Source: Eledone cirrhosa
Taxonomy: Eukaryota
NCBI GenBank assembly: GCA_964016885.1
Contig: OZ024742.1
Location: 17,050,001-17,114,000, forward strand
DNA length: 64,000 nucleotides
Direction: 5' to 3'
How positions within the stretch are numbered: position 1 is the stretch's first letter; every line of letters begins with the position of its first letter. The translations under genes were made by a program, and so were the position numbers. The notes beneath the pieces are model-generated. The model did not search any database, had not been told where the DNA came from, and saw only the letters and a list, made by a program, of their open reading frames with translations. This document shows positions 2,129 to 60,464 of the stretch, in pieces.

Positions 2129-2769
2129 GACCTGCGCCTTCTCATGAAATGTTTAAAATATAACTAATAAACACAATACTTCTCAATAACTTCTCGCCTC
2201 ATATCTCTCTCTCACTCCTCTTTCTCTTTCTCTTTCTCTCTCTCACTCCTCTTTCTCTCTCTCTCTTTCTCTCTCTCTCTCTGTCTATTTCGCTTTCTCT
2301 CTCAGTCTCTCTCTGCCCCCCCCTCTCTTACCCTCTTTCTCTCTTTCTCTTTCTCTCACTCCAGTAAGAATCAATAGGTCAATAACTTTTCGATTTAAAC
2401 AACCACACACATCCAAGTATACAGATAAATACATCTATGTATATATTGATGTATCGTGATGAAAAGGGACGGGGAGAAAACGGAAGATAATAACAAAAGA
2501 AGAAAAAAAGGAAACAAATATTGGAATTCTAATAATGATCACAATAGCATAAATATAAGTTTCTAAGTTAACATCTGGTGTCAAGAAGTGGAATGACAAT
2601 TATACAACAGGTACATTGATATATATAAACACATTGAGAGATGTGAAATTGCATAGGTAACTAGGTGATGTCCTGGTGTTTCTCCAGCGCAAGGCGCATG
2701 CAATAGTCCACTGCGATGATAAAAAGCTAGGGAGCCAATGTATCTCCCTGGAACACTCCAGCCAATATC

Positions 2770-3240
2770 TCAAAATGGTCGTTGCTACAGTGGAGTATGT
2801 GCTGTTGTACGGGTCTGAGACTTGGACACTGACCAAGAAACTCACTCAGATGGTAGATGGGTGCTACACGAGAATGCTGAGGATGGCTCTGAACATTAAT
2901 CAGTATACACTGAGGATGAAGAACTCAGAGCTGTATGGGAACATCCCAAAAGTCAGCTCGAGAGTAGGACAGCGGAGACTGTGGTTAGCTGGACATGCTC
3001 ACCGACATCCAGAGTTGACACTGCACTCAGTGCTCCTGTGGGAGCCCCTGGACGGACACACTAGAAGAGGGAGATCGAGGTTGGCGTATGTTAATACCCT
3101 AAGGACAGACACCGGTCTTTTGGAGACGCAGGACATGGGAGCGATGATGGGGGACAGCGACTGCTGGAGAGAACTCATCCATGGATCTCGGGAATTTTAC
3201 CCACCCTAGATAGATAGATAGATATGCGATGATGATGATG
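2770..3240 (+). mobile_element. 5'-truncated RTE-clade LINE (RT C-terminus plus 3' microsatellite tail)
   Basis: The ORF has LLYGSETWTL..DGCYTRMLRMALNI..RRLWLAGH..W..G..RRGR, typical of RTE ORF2 ends, followed by (TAGA)n(GAT)n. Confidence 0.85.
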
Positions 3241-6890: not shown

Positions 6891-6926
6891 AGCAGAAAAC
6901 CACCCACCGGGTGGTTTTCTGCTAGT
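6888..6926. repeat. Palindromic element junction actagcagaaaaccaccc-acc-gggtggttttctgctagt
   Basis: Near-perfect palindrome with variants at 8505-8543 and 11761-11799. Confidence 0.8.
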
Positions 6927-6929
6927 ATA

Positions 6930-7015
6930 TATATATATTACACACACAGAAATGTAGATATATTTCTGTGTGTATATATATATATATTACACACACAGAA
7001 ATGTATATATATTTC

Positions 7016-7048
<33 letters not shown>

Positions 7049-7156
7049 TACACACACAGAAATGTATATATATTTCTGTGTGTATATATATATATATTTC
7101 TGTGTGTGTATATATATATATATTACACACACACAGAAATGTATATATGTTTCTGT
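6930..7156. repeat. Hairpin-unit minisatellite (acacacagaaat-gtatatat-atttctgtgtgt plus TA spacer)
   Basis: About 4 self-complementary units. The same array occurs at 9497-9810. Confidence 0.8.
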
Positions 7157-8815: not shown

Positions 8816-9017
8816 TATAATTGTTTCTACTTATAGGCACAAGGCTAGCAATTACCCAGTGCATTACTGGTACTTTATTTTATCGACCCCGTAAGGATGA
8901 AAGGCAAAGTCAACCTCGGCGTGATCTGAACTCAGATCGTAAAGGGACGTAACTATGCTGGAAAGCATGGCGTCCGTCCCTCTATCGATACTGCCAATCC
9001 ACCGCCCCAATCCACCG
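8816..9017 (-). mobile_element. Full-length Nin-domain tRNA-derived SINE with a short 5' duplication
   Basis: A-box head, B-box-like gagttcagatc and Nin core. TSD gaaacgtttat(g/a)tataat. ccaatccaccg is duplicated at the 5' end. Confidence 0.9.
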
Positions 9018-9496: not shown

Positions 9497-9553
9497 TATT
9501 TCTGTGTGTGTATATATATATATATTACACACACAGAAATGTATATATATTTC

Positions 9554-9590
<37 letters not shown>

Positions 9591-9810
9591 TACACACACA
9601 GAAATGTATATATATTTCTGTGTGTATATATATATATATTAAACACACAGAAATGTACATATATTTCTGTGTGTATATATATATATTTCTGTGTGTATAT
9701 ATATATATTTCTGTGTGTGTATATATATATATATTACACACAAAGAAATGTATATATATTTCTGTGTGTATATATATATATTACACACACAGAAATGTAT
9801 ATATATTTCT
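9497..9810. repeat. Hairpin-unit minisatellite (second array)
   Basis: Same unit as 6930-7156, about 6 copies. Confidence 0.8.
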
Positions 9811-10121: not shown

Positions 10122-10394
10122 TAATGTCTGTACGTAATGAGGGAGTGAGAGGGGAGAGAAAGAAAGGCAGAGGTGAAGTGACGAAGTGACTCTCTCCTCC
10201 TCCATCTCCCCATTCGTCACAGCGATAGAGGGGAGGAATGTTAGTGTGTTACAAAGAGAAAGAGTGAGAGTGAGAGAAACAGACAGACTAAAAGAGAGGG
10301 ATAGCTGGAGAGAGAGAGAGATAGCAACCACGCGCGCACGTGTTTCCACTGTCGGACAGACAGACAGAGAAATTGCTGGTTATATATTATAAGG

Positions 10395-10962
10395 AGATTA
10401 GAATTTAGAACCCATATCAAAGAATATAAAATTGCAAAAAGACCACAATCAGTTCCATTAGTCTGCTGCTGTACATTTAGAACCCTAAACGTAAAAATGA
10501 AATTTTGGGTCGAGGAAAAAGTTTTGAATCCATTCAGAATTCCAATTTTTTTCTCTGTAGCCCTGTGTCCATCATCATGGTAATATTTAATCCGATCAAA
10601 AAAGTCAAAATTTTTGAAGTGATGACCCGAATCTGCCAGCTCAAGCACAGGTAATGAGTCTGCATAACCAAACTTGAAAGTCAAGAAATGGTGACTGTCG
10701 CAAATAACGCCAACAGAGGCAGACTCATTAAAGCCAATAGAATTTTCCCAAAAATAATATGGGCCGAAGCCGAAAAAAATTTTGTTTGGCAGCTCTAATT
10801 GCGCCTTAATTTTATTCAAAAAATTGTATACTAACATATTCGAATACCAGGCACTATTGGAATCAACAATAGCAGCGTCCTGAGGGTCATTACAAACACA
10901 AATTCGCGAGAATTAGTGTTTAAGGCTTGGAAGGTGGTAAAAAAATCCACAAAATCTTCCAT
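10395..10962 (-). pseudogene. Ulp1/SENP-like (C48, clan CE) cysteine protease, intronless, frameshifted and 3'-truncated
   Basis: WYSNMLVYNFL (cf. WLNDEVINFY), HFLTF (His), LADS (Asp) and QQTNGTDCGLF (Gln/Cys) occur in the correct order. There is a 1-bp deletion near 10896 relative to copy A, whose ORF 7533-7754 gives the in-frame N-terminus. Confidence 0.7.
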
Positions 10963-14579: not shown

Positions 14580-16790
14580 GTATGAGTTACCCTGGAGGAG
14601 ATCAACGCCAATGCTTACAGGATAATATCCGGACTTGGCATAGATGATAGGACAGCCCCATACCAACCGAAGGAGCCGAGGATTACCCTTAAAGATCACA
14701 AGCCCAACTTTGAGTCCGACCTTCCGGTTAGACTAATAGCCTCTTCCAAGTCAGACATGGGGATCGTCAGTAAAAGCATACTCGATAGGATTTTGCCTAT
14801 GCTTTAGAAAAAAACTAAATTACAGCAATGGCCATGCACAGGTGAGGTAATAGAGTGGTTTACGCTATTACGTGAGAAAAGTAGGACCAGCTTTATCCAA
14901 CTGGATATTGCTGGCTACTCCTCCTCAATCTCGCCCATAGTACTTAATAAGGCTCTTATTTTAGCAATGTCCAATACAGACGTAACCCGCGAGGAGGTAG
15001 GCATCATCCACGCCACCCGAAAGCCCTTGATCCGTTTCAGTGCGGACCTTTGGAGTAGGAGTGATTGGCCAAATAACTTTGACATCACAATGGGCTCCAG
15101 CGACTCTGCACAGGTAACGGACATGGTTGGGCTCTTCTTACTGAAGCAGATAAAAGAAGAAATCCCCTGCCTGGGCGGCGGATTGTATCGTCACGATGCT
15201 CTCTTCACAGTCTATGACCACAGCACCACTATGGTGGAGAGAATGAAGAGGCGAATTAGGCATTTCTTTAGGAACCATGGGCTTAGCATTGGATTAGACC
15301 CCAATAGAAAGGTAGTCAACTTCCTAGACACCACCCCAAACCTGAGCACTGAGCAATACTACCCCCATCACAAGCCCAACGAGAAACTGGTATATGTTAA
15401 CGCTAAGTCAAACCACCCTAGAACCATAATTAAGGCCGTAGTCAAGAGTGTCTCGGACAGGATCTCCAACATGTCCACTAATAAAGAGATCTTCGATAGC
15501 AACGCAGAATATTATAACGCAGCTCTAAATAAGGCGGCCCATGCCCAAAATATACCTTACAACCCGAGCCGCCATGATAGAGATAGCACATCGGACCTCC
15601 CGACCCACGGTATCCGAGAGGGGGGGGGTTAACCTAAGAGTGCAGGCAAAGTGGAAGCAACTAAACCCCATAAACCCGGCACCACCACATTAGCGAAAAG
15701 GACGCGTACACCTAGCCATGGGAAGAAACCCAGAACGCGAGGCGGTCTCAGGGGTGATACTAACCACACCAGGCCCGACGCCCCCAACCGCAAGACACGA
15801 AGCGGGACTGATGGGGGATCATCCCATTGTAGAACTCTCAGCGTGGGTACACACCACCCCACAGGTACGGGCCGAGAAGCTAGCAAAAAACATTGCGCCC
15901 ACAGGGGAAGAAACAATGCGGGAACCAGTAGCAGCCCACCAACTCCCCAACAGCCCACAGCCCGCTCAATCCACCCACATAGGAATAGACTAAGAAAAAT
16001 TACGTGGTATAACTCACCCAGCCTGGCCCGGTCATTCTTTAGGGCACTAGATAAATGCTTCCCTAGGGACCACAGATACCACAAGATCTTCAACAGACAC
16101 ACTGTGAAGCTAAAGATTTGACCACGCGCAACGTAGTCCAGCACACAGCTAGCATCATTAGAAGTAGACTTAGAAACTACACACAGCCAGCAGCTGACAA
16201 TATAGGCACCCAGCAGAGCCATGTGGAGGGAAGGAATGGTGGACCCGGAACCCACGCTGGGAACCCAAACAGATCCAGGGACTCCCCACCGGGCCCAGGG
16301 AAAGACCACCCTATACTACGCAACGGGAACCCCACAATAGGCATTCAGGGGTCGACCACATCCTGCAACTGCAGAACCCCCACATTATGCCCCCTTAGTA
16401 ATGAATGCCTAATGAAGAACTTAGTATACGGATGTTGAATAAAAACTTCCAACTCTATGCACCTTTACATCGGAGCCACATCAACAAGCTTCAAAGAAAG
16501 ATAGTATAACCATCGCCATTCCTTTAATAGGCAGGGCAAAAGGAAAAGTACGGCTCTTTCCGAACTGATCTGGAAGCTCAACCTGGATACGACCCCGTAC
16601 TCTCTGGCCTGGTCCCAAATCAGGAAAGTGTCACCTGATAGAGGGGGATCTAGCATCTGCAACCTATGTCTGAACGGGACGCCTCGAGATACTCAGTGGT
16701 GGGAGTAACCTAACCAACCTCAGGACCGACTTCTTTGGTACATGTAGACAGCTCATGGCCGGAACCTTCCTCAAGCTATATGGATAACAA
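14580..16790 (+). pseudogene. Penelope RT plus GIY-YIG endonuclease pseudo-ORF
   Basis: Multiple stops and frameshifts. The catalytic YRDD is mutated to YRHD. Parts appear as ORFs 14967-15632, 15651-16121 and 16118-16438. Confidence 0.85.
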
Positions 16791-21318: not shown

Positions 21319-21380
21319 TTCTCTATTATTAGTAGTGATCTACTATTATTATTAGTGACTATTATTATGGTAGATTGGTA

Positions 21381-22415
21381 GAGGGCGGTGGATTGGCAGT
21401 ATGGGTAGAGGTTCTGACGCCATTTTAGGGTGGTGGATTGGCAGTATAGGTAGAGGGTCTGACGCCATTTTAGGGTGGTGGATTGGCAGTATAGGTAGAG
21501 GGTCTGACACCATGTTAGGGTGGTAGATTGGCAGTATCGGTAGAGGGTCTGACACCATGTTATGGTGGTGGATTGGCAGTATAGGTAGAGGGTCTGACAC
21601 CATGTAAGGGTGGTAGATTGGCAGTATAGGTAGAGGGTCTGACACCATGTTAGGGTGGTGGATTGGCAGTATAGGTAGAGGGTCTGACACCATGTTAGGG
21701 TGGTGGATTGGCAGTATAGGTAGAGGGTCTGACACCATGTTAGGGTGGTAGATTGGCAGTATCGGTAGAGGGTCTGACGCCATGCTAGGGTGGTGGATTG
21801 GCAGTATAGGTAGAGGTTCTGACGCCATTTTAGGGTGGTGGATTGGCAGTATAGGTAGAAAGTCTGACACCATGTTAGGGTGGTGGATTGGCAGTATCGG
21901 TAGAGGGTCTGACACCATGTTAGGGTAGTGGATTGGCAGTATCGGTAGAGGGTCTGACACCATGTTAGGGTGGTGGATTGGCAGTATAGGTAGAGGGTCT
22001 GACACCATGTTAGGGTGGTGGATTGGCAGTATAGGTAGAGGGTCTGACACCATGTTAGGGTGGTGGATTGGCAGTATCGGTAGAGGGTCTGACACCATGT
22101 TAGGGTGGTGGATTGGCAGTATAGGTAGAGGGTCTGACACCATGTTAGGGTGGTGGATTGGCAGTATAGGTAGAGGGTCTGACGCCATTTTAGGGTGGTG
22201 GATTGGCAGTATAGGTAGAGGGTCTGACACCATGTTAGGGTGGTGGATTGGCAGTATCGGTAGAGGGTCTGACACCATGTTAGGGTGGTGGATTGGCAGT
22301 ATCGGTAGAGGGTCTGACACCATGCTAGGGTGGTGGATTGGCAGTATCGGTAGAGGGTCTGACACCATGCTAGGATGGTGGATTGGCAGTATCGGTAGAG
22401 GGTCTGACGCCATGC
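21381..22415 (+). repeat. 45-bp minisatellite, ~23 units, derived from the SINE 5' head
   Basis: The unit tagggtggtggattggcagtat(a/c)ggtagagggtctgacaccatg(t/c) matches SINE nt 1-45 and runs directly into the SINE body. Confidence 0.95.
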
Positions 22416-22560
22416 TTTCCAGCATAGTTACGTCCCTTTGCGATCTGAGTTCAAATCTGCCGAGGTTGACTTTTCCTTTCATCCTGACGGGTCGATAAAA
22501 TAAAGTACCAGTAATACACACAAGGTAATTGCTGGCCTTGTGCCAAAAGTAGAATCAATT
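22371..22560 (+). mobile_element. Full-length Nin-domain SINE at the 3' end of the 45-bp array
   Basis: B-box gagttcaaatc, Nin core and 3' tail. The 13-bp TSD attagtagtgatc (21328-21340 and 22558-22570) encloses array plus SINE. Confidence 0.9.
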
Positions 22561-22699
22561 AGTAGTGATCAAATTTCATATGTGTATATAGATATATACA
22601 CATATGTATTTATATAGATATATATACATATGCATATATTAGAAAAGGGAAGTAATGTTCTCTACAAAACAGTGGATATAGGGAAGAGATGAAGTTGAA

Positions 22700-32252: not shown

Positions 32253-32625
32253 ATAATTGTTTCAACTTTAGGCACAAGGCTAGCAATTAACCAGTGCATT
32301 ACTGGTACTTTATTTTATCGACCCCGTAAGGATGAAAGGCAAAGTCAACCTCCGCGGGATTCGAACTCAGATCGTAAAGGGACGTAACTATGCTGGAAAG
32401 CATGGCGTCCAACACTCTACCGATACTGCCAATCCAATGATTTCTGTAAGGTGGGGGAAAGGGTAAAATCGATTATATTGACCCAGTATGTAAAAGTTAC
32501 TTTAATTTATCGACCGCGGAGAGATCAAAGACAAAGTTGACCTCGGCGGGATTTGAATTCAGAATGTAAAGAGTATGAACAAATGACACAATGGATTTTG
32601 TCCTACGCTCTATCGATTCTGCCGT
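32253..32625 (-). mobile_element. Two adjacent Nin-domain SINEs (young type 32253-32436; older subfamily with extra gggtc/aatcga segment 32437-32625)
   Basis: Two successive reverse-complement Nin cores and tRNA heads. Confidence 0.8.
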
Positions 32626-35040: not shown

Positions 35041-35218
35041 ATAATTGTTTCTACTTTTGGCACAAGGCCAGCAAATAACCAGTGTATTACTGGTACTTTA
35101 TTTTATCGACCCCGTAAGGATGAAAGGCAAAGTTAACCGCGACGGGATTTGAACTCAGACCGTAAAGGGATGTAACTATGCTAGAAAGCATGGTGTCCGA
35201 CCCTCTACCGATACCACC
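35041..35218 (-). mobile_element. Nin-domain SINE
   Basis: Nin core plus head. TSD tatatttt(t)gttcattataat. Confidence 0.9.
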
Positions 35219-35347: not shown

Positions 35348-35389
35348 ACAAAATATAAACTTACTCTTTCAGTATAAATATTCATTAAT

Positions 35390-35520
35390 ACGGCCCTTTA
35401 TGGTCTCAGTTCAAATCCCGCCGAGGTTAACTTTGCCTTTCATCCTTACGGGGTCGATAACATAAAGTACCAGTAATACACTGGGATAATTGCTGGCCTT
35501 GTGCCAAAAGTAGAAACAAA
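35390..35520 (+). mobile_element. 5'-truncated Nin-domain SINE
   Basis: gttcaaatcccgccgaggttaactttgcctttcatcc...agaaacaa. Confidence 0.85.
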
Positions 35521-37334: not shown

Positions 37335-37850
37335 TGCCTTATGGCATAGATTTACGGCCCTTTATTATCTGAGTTTAAATCTAGCCGAGATTAACTTTGC
37401 TTTTCATCCTTACGGGGTCGATAAAATAAAGTACCAATAATGCGCTGGGGTCGATTTAATCGACTTTCCCTTCTCCCCAAATTGCTGGCCTGGTGCCTAT
37501 TGTAGAAATCCTTATTGGTGGTTTGGCAGTAGTGGTAGAGTGTCAGATACCATGCTTTTCAGCATAGAGTTACGGCCCTTTACGTTCTGAGCTCAAATCG
37601 GCCGAGTTTAACTTTGCCTTTCATCCTTACGGGGTCGATAAAATAAAGTACCAGTAATGCGCTGGCGTAATTGCTGTCCTTGTGCCAAAAGTAGAAACAT
37701 TATTATTATTATTAATCCCGCCGAGGTTAGCTTTCCTTTCATCCTTACGGTGTCGATAAAATAAAGTACCAGTAATGCGCTGGGGTCGATGTAATTGACT
37801 TTCCTCTCTTCCAAAATTGTTGCCCTTGTTCTTTAATCAGAGACCAATAT
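37335..37850 (+). mobile_element. Cluster of three tandem Nin-domain SINE copies (37335-37510, 37517-37705, 37714-37850)
   Basis: Three successive catccttacgg.gtcgataaaataaagtacca cores. Two carry the ggggtcgat..aat.gacttt extension. Confidence 0.85.
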
Positions 37851-42119: not shown

Positions 42120-42312
42120 TAATTGTATCTACTTTTTGAAATAGGCCAGCAATTACAGTGTATTTCAGGTACTTTATTTTATCAACCCCGTAAGGATGAA
42201 AAGCAAAGGTAACCTTCGCGGGAAAGAGCCGAACTCAGAATGAAAAGGGCCGTAACTCTTAGCGTCAAAGCATGGTGTCAGACCCACTACCGATACTGCC
42301 AATCCACCACCC
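42120..42312 (-). mobile_element. Diverged Nin-domain SINE that anchors the giant 45-bp array
   Basis: aattgtatctacttttt..ggccagcaatt..ggtactttattttatcaaccccgtaaggatgaaa..gaactcag..gtaactct..agcatggtgtcagacc continues directly into the array. Confidence 0.85.
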
Positions 42313-45300
42313 TAGCATGGTGTCAGACCCTCTACCCATACTGCCAATCCACCACCCTAGCATGGTGTCAGACCCTCTACCCATACTGCCAATCCAGCAC
42401 CCTACCATGGTGTCAGACCTTCCGCTATTACTGTCAATCCACCACCCTAGCATGGTGTCAGACCCTCTAGCGATACTACCAATCTACCACCCTATCATGG
42501 TGTCAGACCCTCTACCGATACTGCCAATCTACCACCCTATCATGGTGTCAGACCCTCTAGCGATACTGCCAATCTACCACCCTATCATGGTGTCAGACCC
42601 TCTACCGATACTGCCATTCCACCACCCTACCATGGTGTCAGACCTTCCACTATTACTGCCAATCCACCACCCTAACATGGTGTCAGAACCTCTTCCGATA
42701 CTGCCAATCAACCACCCTAACATGGTGTCAGACCCTCCACTGATACTGCCAATCCACCACCCTAGCATGGTGTCAGACCCTCCACTGATACTGCCAATCT
42801 ACCACCCTACCATGGTTTCAGACTCTCTACCGATACTGCCAATCCACCACCCTAACGTGGTGTCAAACCCTCTACCTATACTGCCAATCCACCACCCTAG
42901 CATGGCGTCAGACCCTCTACCGATACTGCCAATCCACCACCCTAGCATGGTGTCAGACCCTCTACTTATACTGCCAATCCACCACCCTAACATGGTGTCA
43001 GACGCTCTACCGATGCTGCCAATCCAGCACCCTAGCATGGTGTCAGACCCTCTACCTATACTGCCAATCCACCACCCTAGCATGGTGTCAGACCCTCTAC
43101 CTATACTGCCAATCTACCACCCTAACATGGTTTCAGGCTCTCTACCGATACTGCCAATCCACCACCCTAACATGGTGTCAGACCCTCTACCTATACTACC
43201 AATCTACCACCCTAACATGGTGTCAGACCCTCCACTGATACTGCCAATCTACCACCCTAACATGGTGTCAGACCCTCCACTGATACTGCCAATCCACCAC
43301 CCTAACATGGTGTCAGACCCTCCACTGATACTGCCAATCTACCACCCTAGCATGGCGTCAGACCCTCCACTGATACTGCCAATCTACCACCCTAACATGG
43401 TGTCAGACCCTCCACTGATACTGCCAATCCACCACCCTAACATGGTGTCAGACCCTCCACTGATACTGCCACTCTACCACCCTAACATGGTGTTCGACCC
43501 TCTACCAATACTGCCAATCCACCACCCTAAGATGGTGTCAGACCCTCCACTGATACTGCCAATCTACCACCATACCATGGTGTCTGACCCTCCACTGATA
43601 CTGCCACTCTACCACCCTAACATGGTGTCAGACCCTCCACTGATACTACCATTCTACCACCCTAACATGGTGTCAGACCCTCCACTGATACTGCCAATCT
43701 ACCAACCTACCATGGTGTCAGACCCTCCACTGATACTGCCACTCTACCACCCTAACATGGTGTCAGACCCTTCACTGATACTGCCACTCTACCACCCTAA
43801 CATGGTGTCAGACCCTCTACCTATAATGCCAATCCACCACCCTAGCATGGTGTCAGACCCTCCACTGATACTGCCAATCTACCACTCTAGCATGGTGTCA
43901 GACCCTCTACTGATACTGCCAATCTACCACCCTAACATGGCGTCAGACCCTCTACAGATACTGCCAATCTACCACCCTAACATGGTGTCAGTCCCTCTAC
44001 CGATACTGCCAATCTACCACCCTACCATGGTGTCAGACCCTCTACTGATACTGCCAATCCACCACCCTAACATGGTGTCAGACCCTCTACCCATAATGCC
44101 AATCCACCACCCTAGCATGGTGTCAGACCATCCACTGATACTATCAATCCACAACCCTAACATGGTGTCAGACCCTCCACTGATACTACCAATCTACCAC
44201 CCTAGCATGGCGTCAGACCCTCCACTGATACTGCCAACCTACCACCCTAACGTGGTGTCAGACCCTCCACTGATACTGCCAACCTACCACCCTAACGTGG
44301 TGTCAGACCCTCCACTGATACTACCAACCTACCACCCTTACATGGTGTCAGACCCTCCACTGATACTACCAACCTACCACCCTTACATGGTGTCAGACCC
44401 TCCACTGATACTACCAATCTACCACCCTAGCATGGCGTCAGACCCTCCACTGATACTGCCAACCTACCACCCTAACGTGGTGTCAGACCCTCCACTGATA
44501 CTACCAACCTACCACCCTTACATGGTGTCAGACCCTCCACTGATACTATCAATCCACCAACCTAACGTGGTGTCAGACCCTCCACTGATACTGCCAATCC
44601 ACCACCCTAACAAGGTGTCAGACCCTCCACTGATACTACCAACCTACCACCCTTACATGGTGTCAGACCCTCCACTGATACTATCAATCCACCAACCTAA
44701 CGTGGTGTCAGACCCTCTGATGATACTGCCAATCCACCACCCTAACATGGTGTCAGACCCTCCACTGATACTGCCAATCTACCACCCTAACATGGTGTCA
44801 GACCCTCCACTGATACTGCCAATCCAGCACCCTAACATGGCGTCAGACCCTCTACCGATACTGCCAATCCACCACCCTAGCATGGTGTCAGACCCTCTAC
44901 CGATACTGCCAATCCACCACACTAGCATGGTGTCAGACCCTCTACCGATACTGCCAATCCACCACCCTAGCATGGTGTCAGACCCTCTACCGATACTGCC
45001 AATCTACCACCCTAGCATGGTGTCAGACCCTCTACCGATACTGCCAATCTACCACCCTAGCATGGTGTCAGACCCTCCACTGATACTACCAATCTACCAC
45101 CCTAACATGGTGTCAGACCCTCCACTGATACTACCAATCTACCAACCTACAATGGTGTCAGACCCTCCACTGATACTGCCAATCTACCACCCTAACTTGG
45201 TGTCAGACCCTCCACTGATACTACCTATCTACCACCCTAACATGGTGTCAGACCCTCCACTGATACTGCCAATCTACCACCCTAACATGGTGTCAGATCC

Positions 45301-48300
45301 TCTACCTATACTGCCAATCTACCACCCTAACATGGTGTCAGACCCTCTACCTATACTGCCAATCTTCCACCCTAGCATGGTGTCAGACCCTCTACCTATA
45401 CTGCCAATCTACCACCCTAGCATGGTGTCAGACCCTCTACCTATACTGCCAATCCACCACCCTAACATGGTGTCAGACCGTCCACTGATACTACCAATCT
45501 ACCACCCTAACATGGTGACAGACCCTCCACTGATACTGCCAATCCACCACCCTAGCATGGCGTCAGACCCTCCACTGATACTGCCAATCCACCACCCTAA
45601 CATGGTGTCAGACCCTCCACTGATACTGCCAATCTACCACCCTAACATGGCGTCAGACCCTCCACTGATACTGCCAATCCACCACCCTAGCATGGTGTGA
45701 GACCCTCCACTGATACTACCAATCCACCACCCTAGCATGTTGTGAGACCCTCCACTGATACTGCCAATCCACCACCCTAGCATGGCGTCAGACCCTCCAC
45801 TGATACTGCCAATCCACCACCCTAACATGGCGTCAGACCCTCCACTGATACTGCCAACCTACCACCCTAACATGGTGTCAGACCCTCCACTGATACTACC
45901 AATCTACCACCCTAACATGGTGTCAGACCCTCCACTGATACTACCAATCTACCACCCTAACATGGTGTCAGACCCTCCACTGATACTGCCAACCTACCAC
46001 CCTAACATGGTGTCAGACCCTCCACTGATACTACCAATCTACCACCCTAGCATGGTGTCAGTCCCTCTACCGATACTACCAATCTACCACCCTAACATGG
46101 TGACAGACCCTCCACTGATACTGCCAATCCACCACCCTGAAATGGTGTCAGACCCTCCACTGATACTACCAATCTACCACCCTAACATGGTGACAGACCC
46201 TCCACTGATACTGCCAATCCACCACCCTAACATGGTGTCAGACCCTCCACTGATACTGCCAATCTACCACCCTAACATGGTGTCAGACCATCCACTGATA
46301 CTACCAATCTACCACCCTAACATGGTGACAGACCCTCCACTGATACTGCCAATCCACCACCCTAACATGGTGTCAGACCCTCCACTGATACTGCCAATCT
46401 ACCACCCTAACATGGTGTCAGACCATCCACTGATACTACCAATCTACCACCCTAACATGGTGACAGACCCTCCACTGATACTGCCAATCCACCACCCTAA
46501 CATGGTGTCAGACCCTCCACTGATACTGCCAATCTACCACCCTAACATGGTGTCAGACCATACACTGATACTACCAATCTACCACCCTAACATGGTGTCA
46601 GACCATCCACTGATACTACCAATCTACCACCCTAACATGGTGACAGACCCTCCACTGATACTACCAATCTACCACCCTAACATGGTGTCAGACCCTCCAC
46701 TGATACTGCTAATCTACCACCCTAACATGGTGTCAGACCCTCCACTGATACTACCAATCTACCAACCTACAATGGTGTCAGACCCTCCACTGATACTACC
46801 AATCTACCAACCTAACATGGTGTCAGAGCCTCTACCTATACTGCCAATCTACCACTCTAGCATGATGTCAGACTCTCCACTGATACTGCCAATCTACCAC
46901 CCTAACATGGTGGCAGACACTCCACTGATACTACCTATCTACCACCCTAACATGGTGTCAGACCCTCCACTGATACTGCCAATCTACCACCCTAACATGG
47001 TGTCAGACCCTCTACCTATACTGCCAATCTACCACCCTAACATGGTGTCAGACCCTCTACCTATACTGCCAATCTTCCACCGTAGCATGGTGTCAGACCC
47101 TCTACCTATACTGCCAATCTACCACCCTAACATGGTGTCAGACCCTCTACTGATACTGCCAGTCCACCACCCTAACATGGTGTCAGACCCTCTACCTATA
47201 CTGCCAATCTACCACCCTAACATGGTGTCAGACCCTCTACTGATACTGCCAGTCTACCACCCTAACATGGTGTCAGACCCTCTACCTATACTGCCAATCT
47301 ACCACCCTAGCATGGTGTCAGACCCTCCACTGATACTGCCAATCTACCACCCTAACATGGCGTCAGACCCTCCACTGATACTGCCAATCTACCACCCTAA
47401 CATGGTGTCAGACCCTCTACCTATAATGCCAATCTACCACCCTTACATGGTGTCAGTCCCTCCACTGATACTGCCAATCCACCACCCTAACATGGTGTCA
47501 GACCCTCCACTGATACTGCCAATCCACCACCCTAACATGGTGTCAGAACCTCCACTGATACTATCAATCCACCACCCTAGCATAGTGTCAGACCCTCTAC
47601 CGATACTGCCAATCCACCACCCTAACATGGTGTCAGACCCTCCACTGATACTACAAATCCACCACCCGTGCATGGTGCCAGACCCTCTACCTATACTGCG
47701 AATCCACCACCCGTGCATGGTGCCGGACCCTCTACCTATACTGCCAATCCACCACTCTAACATGGCGTCAGACCCTCTACCTATACTGCCAATCCACCAC
47801 CCTAGCATGGTGCCAGACCGTCTACCGATACTGCCAATCCATCACCCTAACATGGTGTCAGACCCTCCACTGATACTACCAACCTGCCACCCTAACATGG
47901 TGTCAGACCCTCCACTGATACTACCAATCCACCACCCGTGCATGGTGCCAGACCCTCTACCGATACTGCCAGTCCACCACCCATACATGGTGTCAGACCC
48001 TCTACCGATACTGCCAATCCACCACCCTAGCATGGTGTCAGACCCTCTACGGATACTACCAATCCACCACCCTACCATGGTGTCAGACCCTCTACCGATG
48101 CTGCCAATCCATCACCCTAACATGGTGTCAGACACTCTACCGATACTGCCAATCTACCACCCTAACATGGTGTCAGACCGTCTACTGATACTGCCAATCC
48201 ACCACCCTAGCATGGTGTCAGACCCTCTAACTATAATGCCAATCCACCACCCTTACATGGTGTCAGACCCTCCACTGATACTGCCAATCTACCACCCTAA

Positions 48301-51300
48301 CAAGGTGTCAGACCCTCCACTGATACTACCAATCTACCACCCTAACATGGTATCAGACCCTCCACTGATACTATCAATCCACCACCCTAACATGGTGTCA
48401 GACCCTCCACTGATACTACCAATCTACCACCCTAACATGGTATCAGACCCTCCACTGATACTATCAATCCACCACCCTAACATGGTGTCAGACCCTCCAC
48501 TGATACTACCAATCTACCACCCTAACGTGGTGTCAGACCCTCCACTGATACTACCAACCTGCCACCCTTACATGGTGTCAGACCCTACATTGATACTATC
48601 AATCCACCAACCTAACGTGGTGTCAGACCCTCTGATGATACTGCCAATCCACCACCCTAACATGGTGTCAGACCCTCCACTGATACTATCAATCCACCAA
48701 CCTAACGTGGTGTCAGACCCTCTGATGATACTGCCAATCCACCACCCTAACATGGTGTCAGACCCTCCACTGATACTGCCAATCTACCACCCTAACGTGG
48801 TGTCAGTCCCTCCACTGAAACTACCAACCTACCACCCTTACATGGTGTCAGACCCTCCACTGATACTATCAATCCACCAACCTAACGTGGTGTCAGACCC
48901 TCCACTGATACTATCAATCCACCACCCTAGCATAGTGTCAGACCCTCTACCGATACTGCCAATCCACCACCCTACCATGGTGTCAGACCCTCCACTGATA
49001 CTATCAATCCACCACCCTAGCATAGTGTCAGACCCTCTACCGATACTGCCAATCCACCATCCTAACATGGTGTCAGAACCTCCACTGATACTATCAATCC
49101 ACCACCCTAGCATAGTGTCAGACCCTCTACCGATACTGCCAATCCACCACCCTACCATGGTGTCAGACCCTCCACTGATACTATCAATCCACCAACCTAA
49201 CGTGGTGTCAGACCCTCCACTGATACTACCAATCCACCACCCGTGCATGGTGCCAGACCCTCTACCTATACTGCCAATCCACCACCCGTGCATGGTGCCA
49301 GACCCTCTACCTATACTGCCAATCCACCACCCTAACATGGCGTCAGACCCTCTACCTATACTGCCAATCCACCACCCTAGCATGGTGCCAGACCCTCTAC
49401 CGATACTGCCAATCCATCACCCTAACATGGTGTCAGACCCTCCACTGATACTACCAATCTACCACCCTAACATGGTGTCAGACCCTCCACTGATACTACC
49501 AATCTACCAACCTACCATGGTGTCAGACCCTCCACTGATACTGCCAATCTACCACACTAACATGGTGTCAGACCCTCCACTGATACTACCAATCTACCAA
49601 CCTACCATGGTGTCAGACCCTCCACTGATACTGCTAATCTACCACCCTAACATGGTGTCAGACCCTCCACTGATACTGCCAATCTACCACCCTAACATGG
49701 TGTCAGACCCTCCACTGATACTACCAATCTACCAACCTACCATGGTGTCAGACCCTCCACTGATACTGCTAATCTACCACCCTACCATGGTGTCAGACCC
49801 TCCACTGATACTGCTAATCTACCACCCTAACATGGTGTCAGACCCTCCACTGATACTACCAATCTACCAACCTACCATGGTGTCAGACCCTCCACTGATA
49901 CTACCAATCTACCACCCTAACATGGTGTCAGAGCCTCTACCTATACTGCCAATCTACCACTCTAGCATGGTGTCAGACTCTCCACTGATACTGCCAATCT
50001 ACCACCCTAACATGGTGTCAGACACTCCACTGATACTACCTATCTACCACCCTAACATGGTGTCAGACCCTCCACTGATACTGCCAATCTACCACCCTAA
50101 CATGGTGTCAGACCCTCTACCTATACTGCCAATCTACCACCCTAACATGGTGTCAGACCCTCTACCTATACTGCCAATCTTCCACCCTAGCATGGTGTCA
50201 GACCCTCTACCTATACTGACAATCTACCACCCTAACATGGTGTCAGACCCTCTACTGATACTGCCAGTCCACCACCCGTGCATGGTGCCAGACCCTCTAC
50301 CGATACTGCCAATCCACCACCCTAGCATGGTGTCAGACCCTCCACTGATACTGCCAATCTACCACCCTAGCATGGTGTCAGACCCTCTACCTATACTGCC
50401 AATCCACCACCCTAACATGGCGTCAGACCCTCTACCTATACTGCCAATCCACCACCCTAGCATGGTGCCAGACCCTCTACCTATACTGCCAATCCACCAC
50501 CCATACATGGTGTCAGACCCTCTACCGATACTGCCAATCTACCACCCTAGTATGGTGTCAGACCCTCCACTGATACTGCCAACCTACCACCCTAACATGG
50601 TGTCAGACCCTCCACTGATACTGCCAATCTACCACCCTAACATGGCGTCAGACCCTCTACCGATACTGCCAGTCCACCACCCTAGCATGGTGTCAGACCC
50701 TCTACCGATACTGCCAATCCACCACCCTAGCATGGTGTCAGACCATCTACCGATACTGTCAGTCCACCACCCTAGCATGGTGTCAAACCATCTACCGATA
50801 CTGCCAGTCCACCACCCTAGCATGGTGTCAGACCCTCTACCTATACTGCCAATCCACCACCCTAACATGGTGTCAGACCCTCTACCTATACTGCCAATCT
50901 ACCACCCTTACATGGTGTCAGACCCTCTACCTATACTGCCAATCCACCACCCTTACATGGTGTCAGACCCTCTACCTATACTGCCAATCTACCACCCTAA
51001 CATGGTGTCAGACCCTCTACCTATACTGCCAATCTACCACCCTAGCATGGTGTCAGACCCTCTACCTATACTGCCAATCTACCACCCTAGCATGGTGTCA
51101 GACCCTCTACCTATACTGCCAATCCACCACCCTTACATGGTGTCAGACCCTCTACCTATACTGCCAATCCACCACCCTAGCATGGTGTCAGACCCTCTAC
51201 CTATACTGCCAATCTACATCCCTAGCATGGTGTCAGACCCTCTACCTATACTGCCAATCCACCACCCTAACATGGTGTCAGACCCTCTACCTATACTGCC

Positions 51301-54300
51301 AATCTACCACCCTAGCATGGTGTCAGACCCTCTACCTATACTGCCAATCCACCACCCTAGCATGGCGTCAGACCCTCTACCTATACTGCCAATCTACCAC
51401 CCTTACATGGTGTCAGACCCTCCACTGATACTGCCAATCTACCACCCTTACATGGTGTCAGACCCTCTACCTATACTGCCAATCCACCACCCTTACATGG
51501 TGTCAGACCCTCTACCTATACTGCCAATCTACCACCCTAACATGGTGTCAGACCCTCTACCTATACTGCCAATCTACCACCCTAACATGGTGTCAGACCC
51601 TCTACCTATACTGCCAATCCACCACCCTAGCATGGTGTCAGACCCTCTACCTATACTGCCAATCCACCAACCTTACATGGTGTCAGACCCTCTACCTATA
51701 CTGCCAATCCACCACCCTAGCATGGTGTCAGACCCTCTACCTATACTGCCAATCCACCACCCTAGCATGGTGTCAGACCCTCTACCTATACTACCAATCT
51801 ACCACCCTAGCATGGTGTCAGACCCTCTACCTATACTGCCAATCCACCACCCTAACATGGTTTCAGACCCTCTACCTATACTGCCAATCCACCACCCTAA
51901 CATGGTGTCAGACCCTCTACCTATACTGCCAATCCACCACCCTTACATGGTGTCAGACCCTCTACCTATACTGCCAATCTACCACCCTAGCATGGTGTCA
52001 GACCCTCTACCTATACTGCCAATCCACCACCCTAGCATGGTGTGAGACCCTCCACTGATACTACCAATCCACCACCCTAGCATGTTGTGAGACCCTCCAC
52101 TGATACTGCCAATCCACCATCCTAGCATGGCGTCAGACCCTCCACTGATACTGCCAATCCACCACCCTAACATGGCGTCAGACCCTCCACTGATACTGCC
52201 AACCTACCACCCTAACATGGTGTCAGACCCTCCACTGATACTACCAATCTACCACCCTAACATGGTGTCAGACCCTCCACTGATACTACCAATCTACCAC
52301 CCTAACATGGTGTCAGACCCTCCACTGATACTGCCAACCTACCACCCTAACATGGTGTCAGACCCTCCACTGATACTACCAATCTACCACCCTAGCATGG
52401 TGTCAGTCCCTCTACCGATACTACCAATCTACCACCCTAACATGGTGACAGACCCTCCACTGATACTGCCAATCCACCACCCTGAAATGGTGTCAGACCC
52501 TCCACTGATACTACCAATCTACCACCCTAACATGGTGACAGACCCTCCACTGATACTGCCAATCCACCACCCTAACATGGTGTCAGACCCTCCACTGATA
52601 CTGCCAATCTACCACCCTAACATGGTGTCAGACCATCCACTGATACTACCAATCTACCACCCTAACATGGTGACAGACCCTCCACTGATACTGCCAATCC
52701 ACCACCCTAACATGGTGTCAGACCCTCCACTGATACTGCCAATCTACCACCCTAACATGGTGTCAGACCATCCACTGATACTACCAATCTACCACCCTAA
52801 CATGGTGACAGACCCTCCACTGATACTGCCAATCCACCACCCTAACATGGTGTCAGACCCTCCACTGATACTGCCAATCTACCACCCTAACATGGTGTCA
52901 GACCATACACTGATACTACCAATCTACCACCCTAACATGGTGTCAGACCATCCACTGATACTACCAATCTACCACCCTAACATGGTGACAGACCCTCCAC
53001 TGATACTACCAATCTACCACCCTAACATGGTGTCAGACCCTCCACTGATACTGCTAATCTACCACCCTAACATGGTGTCAGACCCTCCACTGATACTACC
53101 AATCTACCAACCTACAATGGTGTCAGACCCTCCACTGATACTACCAATCTACCAACCTAACATGGTGTCAGAGCCTCTACCTATACTGCCAATCTACCAC
53201 TCTAGCATGATGTCAGACTCTCCACTGATACTGCCAATCTACCACCCTAACATGGTGGCAGACACTCCACTGATACTACCTATCTACCACCCTAACATGG
53301 TGTCAGACCCTCCACTGATACTGCCAATCTACCACCCTAACATGGTGTCAGACCCTCTACCTATACTGCCAATCTACCACCCTAACATGGTGTCAGACCC
53401 TCTACCTATACTGCCAATCTTCCACCGTAGCATGGTGTCAGACCCTCTACCTATACTGCCAATCTACCACCCTAACATGGTGTCAGACCCTCTACTGATA
53501 CTGCCAGTCCACCACCCTAACATGGTGTCAGACCCTCTACCTATACTGCCAATCTACCACCCTAACATGGTGTCAGACCCTCTACTGATACTGCCAGTCT
53601 ACCACCCTAACATGGTGTCAGACCCTCTACCTATACTGCCAATCTACCACCCTAGCATGGTGTCAGACCCTCCACTGATACTGCCAATCTACCACCCTAA
53701 CATGGCGTCAGACCCTCCACTGATACTGCCAATCTACCACCCTAACATGGTGTCAGACCCTCTACCTATAATGCCAATCTACCACCCTTACATGGTGTCA
53801 GTCCCTCCACTGATACTGCCAATCCACCACCCTAACATGGTGTCAGACCCTCCACTGATACTGCCAATCCACCACCCTAACATGGTGTCAGAACCTCCAC
53901 TGATACTATCAATCCACCACCCTAGCATAGTGTCAGACCCTCTACCGATACTGCCAATCCACCACCCTAACATGGTGTCAGACCCTCCACTGATACTACA
54001 AATCCACCACCCGTGCATGGTGCCAGACCCTCTACCTATACTGCGAATCCACCACCCGTGCATGGTGCCGGACCCTCTACCTATACTGCCAATCCACCAC
54101 TCTAACATGGCGTCAGACCCTCTACCTATACTGCCAATCCACCACCCTAGCATGGTGCCAGACCGTCTACCGATACTGCCAATCCATCACCCTAACATGG
54201 TGTCAGACCCTCCACTGATACTACCAACCTGCCACCCTAACATGGTGTCAGACCCTCCACTGATACTACCAATCCACCACCCGTGCATGGTGCCAGACCC

Positions 54301-57300
54301 TCTACCGATACTGCCAGTCCACCACCCATACATGGTGTCAGACCCTCTACCGATACTGCCAATCCACCACCCTAGCATGGTGTCAGACCCTCTACGGATA
54401 CTACCAATCCACCACCCTACCATGGTGTCAGACCCTCTACCGATGCTGCCAATCCATCACCCTAACATGGTGTCAGACACTCTACCGATACTGCCAATCT
54501 ACCACCCTAACATGGTGTCAGACCGTCTACTGATACTGCCAATCCACCACCCTAGCATGGTGTCAGACCCTCTAACTATAATGCCAATCCACCACCCTTA
54601 CATGGTGTCAGACCCTCCACTGATACTGCCAATCTACCACCCTAACAAGGTGTCAGACCCTCCACTGATACTACCAATCTACCACCCTAACATGGTATCA
54701 GACCCTCCACTGATACTATCAATCCACCACCCTAACATGGTGTCAGACCCTCCACTGATACTACCAATCTACCACCCTAACATGGTATCAGACCCTCCAC
54801 TGATACTATCAATCCACCACCCTAACATGGTGTCAGACCCTCCACTGATACTACCAATCTACCACCCTAACGTGGTGTCAGACCCTCCACTGATACTACC
54901 AACCTGCCACCCTTACATGGTGTCAGACCCTCCATTGATACTATCAATCCACCAACCTAACGTGGTGTCAGACCCTCTGATGATACTGCCAATCCACCAC
55001 CCTAACATGGTGTCAGACCCTCCACTGATACTATCAATCCACCAACCTAACGTGGTGTCAGACCCTCTGATGATACTGCCAATCCACCACCCTAACATGG
55101 TGTCAGACCCTCCACTGATACTGCCAATCTACCACCCTAACGTGGTGTCAGTCCCTCCACTGAAACTACCAACCTACCACCCTTACATGGTGTCAGACCC
55201 TCCACTGATACTATCAATCCACCAACCTAACGTGGTGTCAGACCCTCCACTGATACTATCAATCCACCACCCTAGCATAGTGTCAGACCCTCTACCGATA
55301 CTGCCAATCCACCACCCTACCATGGTGTCAGACCCTCCACTGATACTATCAATCCACCACCCTAGCATAGTGTCAGACCCTCTACCGATACTGCCAATCC
55401 ACCATCCTAACATGGTGTCAGAACCTCCACTGATACTATCAATCCACCACCCTAGCATAGTGTCAGACCCTCTACCGATACTGCCAATCCACCACCCTAC
55501 CATGGTGTCAGACCCTCCACTGATACTATCAATCCACCAACCTAACGTGGTGTCAGACCCTCCACTGATACTACCAATCCACCACCCGTGCATGGTGCCA
55601 GACCCTCTACCTATACTGCCAATCCACCACCCGTGCATGGTGCCAGACCCTCTACCTATACTGCCAATCCACCACCCTAACAAGACGTCAGACCCTCTAC
55701 CTATACTGCCAATCCACCACCCTAGCATGGTGCCAGACCCTCTACCGATACTGCCAATCCATCACCCTAACATGGTGTCAGACCCTCCACTGATACTACC
55801 AATCTACCACCCTAACATGGTGTCAGACCCTCCACTGATACTACCAATCTACCAACCTACCATGGTGTCAGACCCTCCACTGATACTGCCAATCTACCAC
55901 ACTAACATGGTGTCAGACCCTCCACTGATACTACCAATCTACCAACCTACCATGGTGTCAGACCCTCCACTGATACTGCTAATCTACCACCCTAACATGG
56001 TGTCAGACCCTCCACTGATACTGCCAATCTACCACCCTAACATGGTGTCAGACCCTCCACTGATACTACCAATCTACCAACCTACCATGGTGTCAGACCC
56101 TCCACTGATACTGCTAATCTACCACCCTACCATGGTGTCAGACCCTCCACTGATACTGCTAATCTACCACCCTAACATGGTGTCAGACCCTCCACTGATA
56201 CTACCAATCTACCAACCTACCATGGTGTCAGACCCTCCACTGATACTACCAATCTACCACCCTAACATGGTGTCAGAGCCTCTACCTATACTGCCAATCT
56301 ACCACTCTAGCATGGTGTCAGACTCTCCACTGATACTGCCAATCTACCACCCTAACATGGTGTCAGACACTCCACTGATACTACCTATCTACCACCCTAA
56401 CATGGTGTCAGACCCTCCACTGATACTGCCAATCTACCACCCTAACATGGTGTCAGACCCTCTACCTATACTGCCAATCTACCACCCTAACATGGTGTCA
56501 GACCCTCTACCTATACTGCCAATCTTCCACCCTAGCATGGTGTCAGACCCTCTACCTATACTGACAATCTACCACCCTAACATGGTGTCAGACCCTCTAC
56601 TGATACTGCCAGTCCACCACCCGTGCATGGTGCCAGACCCTCTACCGATACTGCCAATCCACCACCCTAGCATGGTGTCAGACCCTCCACTGATACTGCC
56701 AATCTACCACCCTAGCATGGTGTCAGACCCTCTACCTATACTGCCAATCCACCACCCTAACATGGCGTCAGACCCTCTACCTATACTGCCAATCCACCAC
56801 CCTAGCATGGTGCCAGACCCTCTACCTATACTGCCAATCCACCACCCATACATGGTGTCAGACCCTCTACCGATACTGCCAATCTACCACCCTAGTATGG
56901 TGTCAGACCCTCCACTGATACTGCCAACCTACCACCCTAACATGGTGTCAGACCCTCCACTGATACTGCCAATCTACCACCCTAACATGGCGTCAGACCC
57001 TCTACCGATACTGCCAGTCCACCACCCTAGCATGGTGTCAGACCCTCTACCGATACTGCCAATCCACCACCCTAGCATGGTGTCAGACCATCTACCGATA
57101 CTGTCAGTCCACCACCCTAGCATGGTGTCAAACCATCTACCGATACTGCCAGTCCACCACCCTAGCATGGTGTCAGACCCTCTACCTATACTGCCAATCC
57201 ACCACCCTAACATGGTGTCAGACCCTCTACCTATACTGCCAATCTACCACCCTTACATGGTGTCAGACCCTCTACCTATACTGCCAATCCACCACCCTTA

Positions 57301-59276
57301 CATGGTGTCAGACCCTCTACCTATACTGCCAATCTACCACCCTAACATGGTGTCAGACCCTCTACCTATACTGCCAATCTACCACCCTAGCATGGTGTCA
57401 GACCCTCTACCTATACTGCCAATCTACCACCCTAGCATGGTGTCAGACCCTCTACCTATACTGCCAATCCACCACCCTTACATGGTGTCAGACCCTCTAC
57501 CTATACTGCCAATCCACCACCCTAGCATGGTGTCAGACCCTCTACCTATACTGCCAATCTACATCCCTAGCATGGTGTCAGACCCTCTACCTATACTGCC
57601 AATCCACCACCCTAACATGGTGTCAGACCCTCTACCTATACTGCCAATCTACCACCCTAGCATGGTGTCAGACCCTCTACCTATACTGCCAATCCACCAC
57701 CCTAGCATGGCGTCAGACCCTCTACCTATACTGCCAATCTACCACCCTTACATGGTGTCAGACCCTCCACTGATACTGCCAATCTACCACCCTTACATGG
57801 TGTCAGACCCTCTACCTATACTGCCAATCCACCACCCTTACATGGTGTCAGACCCTCTACCTATACTGCCAATCTACCACCCTAACATGGTGTCAGACCC
57901 TCTACCTATACTGCCAATCTACCACCCTAACATGGTGTCAGACCCTCTACCTATACTGCCAATCCACCACCCTAGCATGGTGTCAGACCCTCTACCTATA
58001 CTGCCAATCCACCAACCTTACATGGTGTCAGACCCTCTACCTATACTGCCAATCCACCACCCTAGCATGGTGTCAGACCCTCTACCTATACTGCCAATCC
58101 ACCACCCTAGCATGGTGTCAGACCCTCTACCTATACTACCAATCTACCACCCTAGCATGGTGTCAGACCCTCTACCTATACTGCCAATCCACCACCCTAA
58201 CATGGTTTCAGACCCTCTACCTATACTGCCAATCCACCACCCTAACATGGTGTCAGACCCTCTACCTATACTGCCAATCCACCACCCTTACATGGTGTCA
58301 GACCCTCTACCTATACTGCCAATCTACCACCCTAGCATGGTGTCAGACCCTCTACCTATACTGCCAATCCACCAACCTAGCATGGTGTCAGACCCTCTAC
58401 CTATACTGCCAATCTACCACCCTAGCATGGTGTCAGAACCTCTACCTATACTGCCAATCCACCAACCTAGCATGGTGTCAGACCCTCTACCTATACTACC
58501 AATCCACCAACCTAGCATGGTGTCAGACCCTCTACCTATACTGCCAATCCACCAACCTAGCATGGTGTCAGACCCTCTTCCTATACTGCCAATCTACCAC
58601 CCTAGCATGGTGTCAGACCCTCTACCTATACTGCCAATCCACCAACCTAGCATGGTGTCAGACCCTCTACCTATACTGCCAATCCACCAACCTAGCATGG
58701 TGTCAGACCCTCTACCTATACTGCCAATCCACCACCCTAGCATGGTGTCAGACCCTCTACCTATAGTGCCAATCCACCAACCTAGCATGGTGTCAGACCC
58801 TCTACCTATACTGCCAATCCACCAACCTAGCATGGTGTCAGACCCTCTACCTATACTGCCAATCCACCAACCTAGCATGGTGTCAGACCCTCTACCTATA
58901 CTGCCAATCCACCAACCTAGCATGGTGTCAGACCCTCTACCTATAGTGCCAATCCACCAACCTAGCATGGTGTCAGACCCTCTACCTATACTGCCAATCC
59001 ACCACCCTAGCATGGTGTCAGACCCTCTACCTATAGTGCCAATCCACCAACCTAGCATGGTGTCAGACCCTCTACCTATACTGCCAATCCACCAACCTAG
59101 CATGGTGTCAGACCCTCTACCTATACTGCCAATCCACCAACCTAGCATGGTGTCAGACCCTCTACCTATACTGCCAATCCACCAACCTAGCATGGTGTCA
59201 GACCCTCTACCTATACTGCCAATCCACCAACCTAGCATGGTGTCAGACCCTCTACCTATACTGCCAATCCACCACC
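42271..59276 (-). repeat. Giant 45-bp tandem array (~378 units, ~17 kb) of the SINE 5' head
   Basis: Plus-strand unit catggtgtcagaccctc(t/c)ac(c/t)(g/t)atactgccaatc(c/t)accacccta(a/g). The 45-bp phase holds throughout: ORF starts 42272, 45782 and 52127 differ by multiples of 45. Confidence 0.98.
45668..58357. repeat. 6345-bp (141-unit) higher-order tandem duplication within the array
   Basis: The same succession of rare variant units recurs at +6345 (e.g. TGA pairs at 45698/45743 and 52043/52088). Only a few differences were seen. Confidence 0.92.
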
Positions 59277-59370
59277 GAATAGAAAATAATGGTTGGTTTG
59301 TTACTAATACTCGTGTTGTTGGGGGAGGAGGGGGCTACAGGTAGTCATTAATCTTGGGTTTAACGAGGAA

Positions 59371-60205: not shown

Positions 60206-60464
60206 TCTCAAATGACAGTTCTACAGCAAACACCCCACTGTTATAGTCAGAACAGCAGAAAGAAGTGTTAGAATCAATTCTCTAATATCTATATATAACG
60301 GATATGTTAACTTCGCGAACGTATAGGCTTTATATTTAATTTTTTATCATACATACATACATACATACATATATATATATATACATATATGTATATATAT
60401 GTATATATCATATATATATATACATATGTATACATATATATACATATATATACATATGTATATG

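Follow-up and report, generated by a model that had tools for sequence, protein, structure and literature searches.

Tandem SINE heads within a single target-site duplication in Eledone cirrhosa, and their relation to a larger neighbouring array

Within the stretch of Eledone cirrhosa DNA analyzed here (64,000 nucleotides of contig OZ024742.1, assembly GCA_964016885.1, referred to below as the window), a tandem array built from the first 45 nucleotides of a short interspersed element (SINE) is enclosed, together with the SINE itself, by one target-site duplication (TSD) of the retroposition type. Judged by the alleles that they carry, the units of this array share ancestry with the unit pool of a much larger array nearby and are not independent of it. 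It can tentatively be proposed that a retroposed SINE exchanged its head with this satellite pool and then expanded in place.

Boundaries, units, and 5' junction of the insertion

On the forward strand, the locus reads as microsatellites, a 13-mer (21328-21340), a filler of 41 nt, 23 units of 45 bp, a SINE body of 141 bp, and the same 13-mer again (22558-22570). The two 13-mers are identical, no extension is possible in either direction, and neither a further copy nor any 9- to 12-nt sub-word of it was found on either strand of the 64-kb window. Elsewhere, none of 200,000 windows of 65 nt drawn at random contained the 13-mer, for which 4e-6 occurrences are expected in a search space of this size under an iid model. 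Its first 4 nt (ATTA) equal the consensus tail of the family, so that the right-hand copy overlaps the ATT-type tail there, and the remaining 9 nt are non-consensus. A chance match or a piece of pure consensus is ruled out by the uniqueness of the 13-mer, the random-window null, and the nine non-consensus nucleotides. The first-pass annotation of this DNA had proposed a 13-bp TSD around array and SINE and had named exactly these two explanations as the danger to it; its proposal stands.

Tail-anchored duplications are also found at other copies of the family. Among 11 dispersed SINE copies tested, 6 have clear tail-anchored TSDs of 15-20 nt with the same start as the focal TSD, and 5 have no TSD above the null; with the focal copy counted, 7 of 13 copies tested have tail-anchored TSDs of 13-20 nt, a combination of variable-length TSDs with a simple-repeat tail. 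The enclosure of array and SINE by one retroposition-type TSD is supported, and the focal structure is real and well bounded.

The SINE belongs to a short, interspersed, multicopy, non-coding family, as is usual for SINEs of the tRNA type, with a full length of about 190 bp and 17 other BLAST matches in the 64 kb, the query excluded. Scored against consensus motifs, the focal copy has an A-box-like motif at 22384-22395 (at most one mismatch) and an exact B box at 22449-22457. ARAGORN predicted no tRNA gene in the region, Rfam returned no tRNA match at E ≤ 10, and the tail of the SINE matched neither of two retroelement-like stretches of the window. The body and its microsatellite-rich surroundings may resemble octopus SINEs and genomes. 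Three of five dispersed copies with an intact 5' end start in the same AGGG.

The focal body (22417-22557, forward strand) is of the younger subfamily type and contains, besides the B box, a T4 run at 22471. It differs from the majority of five young copies by 8 substitutions and 3 indels, the young copies themselves carrying 2-6 changes. If all 11 changes had accumulated after insertion beside a perfect TSD, the probability would be about 0.12, which mildly favours a diverged source element. None of the 17 family matches in the window is a second copy with the focal body, and metagenome scans with the head motif and with the body motif returned 0 loci each. In a word search of sequencing runs, three runs of one sample contain 0.62-0.63 of the words and may be the source of the assembly; five other runs share only 0.07-0.12 of the words, which is no evidence, three more were listed by species label, and no RNA run is among these 11.

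The array itself (21382-22416) consists of 23 units of 45 bp without indels. The repeated unit is SINE nt 1-45, its start falling on the first base of the SINE, and an A-box-like motif is present in all 23 units and a B box in none. The 23rd unit (22372-22416, forward strand) is the SINE's own head; the earlier count of about 23 units before a complete SINE is therefore right for the number of units, but only 22 of them are extra and precede the SINE. The outermost unit (unit 1, 21382-21426, forward strand) begins at SINE nt 1 and combines the SINE-type alleles C5 and G38 with the satellite-type alleles T34 and T44. As had been noticed at first pass, it keeps the ancestral gggcggtgg: C5 is confined to this unit (1 of 23) and is seen in none of the 378 units of the large array, as would be the case if it were left over from the original SINE end. 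Between the two edges lie units 2-22 (21427-22371, forward strand). Unit 23 carries satellite-type T5 and T34 together with SINE-type G38/C44, and the two edges mirror each other in that unit 1 is satellite-type by position 34, and unit 23 is satellite-type up to position 34 and SINE-compatible from position 38. Such SINE-type edges around a satellite-type interior fit satellite units placed inside a pre-existing head.

Adjacent units differ at 2.05 positions compared with 2.57 in shuffles (p = 0.007), and a private variant, which makes a T4 run, recurs in units 1, 2, 10, and 18 (4 of 23, against 0 of 378 in the large array). Because neighbours resemble each other and this variant recurs, expansion within the lineage of the small array is supported, as one of the earlier suggestions, growth of the array inside the insertion, had it. 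Private variant and one body change together give five sense-strand T4 runs in the focal structure, compared with none in four young copies. In vertebrates, T4 terminates Pol III transcription. If this effect, here assumed, holds in this animal too, the five runs, together with the lack of a B box in the units, make it disfavoured that the present 23-unit structure was ever a single Pol III transcript. The notion that array and SINE retrotransposed as one keeps the single TSD on its side, is disfavoured for the present 23 units, and may hold for a source element with a shorter array.

All four CpGs of the head (positions 5, 22, 33-34, and 37-38) are mostly lost in the units of both arrays, with 4 per head versus 0.70 and 0.32 per unit, and two of the losses are transversions. 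A coding meaning for the 400-codon open frames across the array can be rejected, these being a mere result of a stop-free 45-bp unit, and a G-quadruplex drive appears weak (G4Hunter mean 0.64, maximum 1.16). No function is implied for the array, which is most likely inert repeat DNA.

The filler between TSD and array (21341-21381) had been described as about 40 bp of scrambled sequence. The length is right (41 nt), but the sequence is neither random nor scrambled and instead re-copies the target site twice and then fragments of the head. In its target-derived part (21341-21367, forward strand), 2 nt are followed by 16 nt (21343-21358) that repeat 21323-21338 with 1 mismatch and then by 9 nt (21359-21367) repeated from the same starting base; TRF calls a period-20 repeat at 21323-21368, and at control sites a local 16-mer re-copy with at most one mismatch occurs in 454 of 20,000 cases (2.3%). 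The head-derived part (21368-21381, forward strand, 14 nt) can be read in two ways. It may consist of unit positions 5-15 and 23-27, joined via GG and AGGG microhomologies, with an 11-nt match to small-array units, or it may be one 14-nt piece of a variant with 51 occurrences in the large array and none in the small one. A single-head SINE copy elsewhere in the window (8819-9017, reverse strand) has an 18-nt TSD with 1 mismatch and head positions 6-15 re-copied between TSD and head. As a short re-copy of the head is similarly present in this copy, near 9003, which has no array, the two-microhomology reading of the filler needs no satellite. We infer that the 5' junction was repaired by repeated slip-and-copy.

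A pool of units common to two arrays

The large array (42269-59278, reverse strand) measures about 17 kb, lies about 20 kb from the small one, and comprises 378 units in the same phase and with the same junction. It is the likely donor or a relative of the small array, and its units 22-47 are the closest. The SINE body that ends it (42121-42268, reverse strand) is of the older subfamily type, differs from the young majority by 26 substitutions and 3 indels, and has no match to the B box.

Set against a reference of only 10 dispersed heads, all from one window, T34 is found in 23 of 23 small-array units, 374 of 378 large-array units, and 0 of 10 dispersed heads; the corresponding counts are 13 of 23, 124 of 378, and 0 of 10 for A22, and 19 of 23, 223 of 378, and 0 of 10 for T44. 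At position 5, T is present in 22 of 23 and 376 of 378 units, and C is present in the five dispersed heads that reach upstream of this position (one further copy is ambiguous). Six of the eight recurrent derived alleles of the small array are also among the eleven common ones of the large array (p = 1.6e-6; position 30, a 2-2 tie in the reference, was left out of the count), and when CpG transitions are set aside, four of six are shared (A9, A22, T34, and T44; p = 1e-4). Sites 9, 22, 38, 44, and 45 segregate in both arrays, from which it would follow that at least two donor unit types entered the small array.

Small-array units have a net divergence of 0.39 differences per unit from units 22-47 of the large array, compared with 3.17 from four full dispersed heads, and the mean number of differences per 45 bp, for these two loci only, is 2.6 within the small array, 5.1 within the large one, and 4.7 between them. 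The longest string common to both arrays is 131 bp, and 2 of 100 shuffles of the units attained this length. That the small array copies the large one directly and in register can be rejected, the best fit having 60 mismatches and the shuffled mean being 60.1; of the 13 haplotypes of the small array, 10 do not occur in the large one.

On these comparisons, the units of the small array appear to share ancestry with the large-array pool. The first-pass annotation had called the second array independent, which fails for the units, since the junction and most of the recurrent derived alleles are common to both arrays. It had also read the occurrence of two arrays in 64 kb as a sign of a systematic process; as the units share alleles, the two arrays are not two independent observations, and that argument lapses. 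Neither does construction by reiterative jumping on the SINE's own RNA, another of its suggestions, fit the units, for it predicts private errors, and the units instead carry the fixed and segregating alleles of the large array.

The two array-bearing bodies differ at three subfamily diagnostics (a 2-bp indel, T/G, and TTGAC/TTAAC), the focal body having the young states (2-bp deletion, T, and TTGAC) and the body of the large array the older ones. A likelihood tree of the bodies, which ignores the indel and leaves out unit 1 and two 5'-truncated copies, has little resolution, joins the two array-bearing bodies in 0% of 200 bootstrap trees, and gives p-AU 0.122 for joining them. The TSD candidate of the large array (9 of 10 nt, 2 nt from the head) has a score equal to the null maximum and is only suggestive. 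By their bodies and units, the two insertions look separate and the unit pool shared.

Within the large array, units 21-302 (45689-58378, reverse strand) make up an almost perfect tandem duplication, in which 141 units (6,345 bp) are repeated with 5 mismatches. This could be a higher-order duplication of very recent date or a product of the assembly and, if real, would attest to DNA-level growth of the head repeat.

Routes by which the small array may have formed

The explanation that we prefer, with a confidence that stops a little short of an even chance, is that an ordinary SINE copy was retroposed, that its head afterwards exchanged with the satellite pool, and that the units then multiplied on the spot. 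A full-length young SINE would have inserted by target-primed reverse transcription with microhomology between tail and target (ATTA), and the 5' junction would have been patched by re-copying target DNA and fragments of the head. Out-of-register strand invasion or gene conversion between the head and the satellite pool may then have put several satellite units inside the head, with the outer crossover between positions 5 and 34 of unit 1 and the inner crossover beyond position 34 of unit 23; the later conversion of a head dimer that had formed locally would also be covered. Slippage or unequal exchange would subsequently have expanded and shuffled the units. The ancestral unit itself probably arose once, through a jump of the reverse transcriptase at the 5' end of the RNA; its junction lies exactly on the first base of the SINE.

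Several observations count against such an exchange. No stretch of the present large array matches the small array in register as a donor, and 45 bp is a short homology for recombination. The 14-nt match of the filler to a variant found in the large array alone would fit a satellite template that was present at insertion, the body is more diverged than a perfect TSD suggests (the probability of about 0.12 given above), and the body tree does not reject a grouping of both array-bearing bodies (p-AU 0.122).

A broader conjecture is that the SINE-head satellite spreads to new sites by retrotransposition, be it through a template switch during insertion or as a mobile SINE with a short array, which we consider somewhat less likely than not. 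If true, each TSD-bounded insertion would seed an array able to grow to many kilobases, and a dated, RNA-mediated route of satellite dispersal would be at hand.

In its mobile form, the conjecture supposes that a chimeric source element, made of a few satellite-type heads and a young body, formed elsewhere and retrotransposes as a unit, loosely in the manner of SVA or of the promoter monomers of mouse L1, with the number of units changing in place in each copy. This we regard as unlikely, even though it would account for the perfect TSD around the whole structure, for a unit 1 that begins exactly at the first base of the SINE, for the A-box-like motif in 23 of 23 units, and for a body 11 changes away from the young majority; two donor unit types would also be enough to seed the shared polymorphisms. 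The event that formed the chimera would still be needed, however, since the bodies of the two arrays differ at three diagnostics. The five sense-strand T4 runs, compared with none in four young copies, also tell against it if a Pol III stop is assumed, as does the lack of a second copy with the focal body among the 17 family matches in the window.

A somewhat smaller chance is given to capture during insertion, in which the reverse transcriptase, at work on a young body, would have passed, through homology of the heads, onto a satellite transcript or satellite DNA and ended on a SINE 5' end. Several changes of template can be read from the filler at the 5' junction, and the 14-nt piece of this filler matches the large-array-only variant (51 occurrences versus 0). 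In the accessible text of the sources, template jumps of R2 onto other RNAs are documented (PMC3414825), and switching of this kind is proposed for the exchange of SINE modules (PMC4758252). Against this, two or three switches would be required to leave SINE-type alleles at both edges, and two microhomology jumps on the head with one mismatch, as in the copy near 9003, would account for the filler piece equally well.

Very improbable, and largely refuted, is an independent origin from the SINE's own head, by reiterative jumping at the 5' end or by local duplication, with the likeness to the large array produced by convergence. The junction on the first base of the SINE, the short 5' re-copies that occur in the family (the copy near 9003), and the fact that two of the shared changes (T5 and A38) are ordinary CpG transitions would suit it; the four shared alleles that are not CpG transitions (A9, A22, T34, and T44; p = 1e-4), the polymorphisms common to both arrays, and T34 fixed even in both terminal units do not. 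Least probable of all is an assembly artefact that merged reads of the satellite into an ordinary SINE locus, for although repeat arrays are prone to assembly errors and the 6.3-kb duplication in the large array (5 mismatches) could be artefactual, the small array is only 1.2 kb long, has a recurrent private variant (the T4 variant, 4 of 23 versus 0 of 378), and shows 10 of 13 haplotypes that the large array lacks.

Known arrays of SINE origin and neighbouring repeats

Tandem arrays of SINE-derived units are already known from squamates and, within a TSD pair, from a blood clam. As far as the accessible text of Vassetzky et al. 2023 (PMC10702118) describes them, the squamate satellites sSat1-3 are tandem repeats of a portion of a tRNA-related SINE, the terminal unit continuing to the SINE end; a locus holds from few to hundreds of units, up to about 1000, the units are similar between loci, with subvariants specific to single loci, the 5' or tRNA part is covered by some variants, and unit length is 67-290 bp. 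Occurrence at many loci with a subtelomeric bias also belongs to their profile. The arrays here resemble them in that the unit is a portion of the SINE (nt 1-45), repeated with 21 and 376 middle units where at least four mark such an array, in that both arrays end in a complete SINE body, and in that the units are homogeneous within and between the two loci. They differ from the squamate satellites, as these are described there, in a unit of 45 bp that starts exactly at SINE nt 1 and lacks a B box, in the presence of a TSD, in units apparently common to bodies of different subfamilies, and in the animal group. The same account does not settle how satellites of SINE origin come to occupy new loci.

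In Scapharca broughtonii, a blood clam, scans limited to elements no shorter than 150 bp found TSD1-(SINE)n-TSD1 arrays of 4-15 units, according to the accessible part of PMC11481361. These share with the focal locus one TSD pair around tandem SINE-derived units and SINE termini at both ends. Unlike the clam unit as described there, which is internal and truncated at head and tail, the unit here is head only, from nt 1, and there are 23 and 378 units with a pool common to both loci.

Chimeras made at the 5' end of retroelements offer a further comparison. R2 is described, in what is accessible of PMC3414825, as jumping from the element's 5' end to other RNAs, with 5' additions of U12 or tRNA, and for the exchange of SINE modules both template switching and non-allelic recombination are named as proposed routes in the accessible part of PMC4758252, which also cites the octopus tRNA-derived SINEs OK, OR1, and OR2 (from the 1994 work of Ohshima and Okada). 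The focal insertion is like such chimeras in an added stretch that joins the element exactly at its first base and in the different ancestry of head and body within one TSD-bounded insertion; the chimeras in these accounts have one foreign RNA piece, whereas 22 near-identical heads and signs of later DNA-level expansion are present here. Neither a description of a cephalopod SINE-head satellite nor an account of the present SINE family was found in the literature searched, which held mostly papers outside subscription, and a search of papers by motif gave no relevant title among 20 of the 42 matched. The supplements of PMC10702118 may contain TSD-bounded cases.

What apparently sets the present arrays apart is the head-only unit from nt 1 and its occurrence with bodies of different subfamilies. 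SVA and LAVA composites with their VNTR and the 5' monomer arrays of mouse L1 are TSD-bounded retroposons that carry a tandem array of variable unit number, and they are established mobile families with Pol II transcripts. The likeness to the focal locus is that of a tandem array inside a TSD-bounded retroposon, the mobility of an array-headed form being hypothetical here. As the architecture is published, the locus alone is of modest interest, and its value is that of a test case: an intact TSD, a readable 5' junction, and traceable units could separate DNA-level exchange from RNA-mediated spread. It also serves as a warning that neighbouring arrays should not count as independent origins.

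Other repeats and open frames accompany the two arrays in the window. The open frames at 2661-3209 and 14808-16438 (forward strand) and 10241-10912 (reverse strand) resemble, by eye, a fragment of an RTE-type LINE, a Penelope-like element, and a fragment of an Ulp1-like protease; a Pfam search of four flanking ORF pieces at E ≤ 0.01 gave 0 families. A longer SINE relative, with an extra segment after the conserved core, stands head to tail or nested with the short form at 37344-37830 (forward strand) and 32437-32600 (reverse strand), and two 5'-truncated SINE copies at 35043-35214 (reverse strand) and 35389-35519 (forward strand) lie divergently 175 bp apart, each with its own TSD. Two related arrays of AT-rich palindromic units of about 49 bp (6926-7123 and 9511-9810) are 2.6 kb apart, and an unrelated 52-bp tandem array of 8.2 copies with 99% identity (59779-60206) is located 500 bp past the outer end of the large array.
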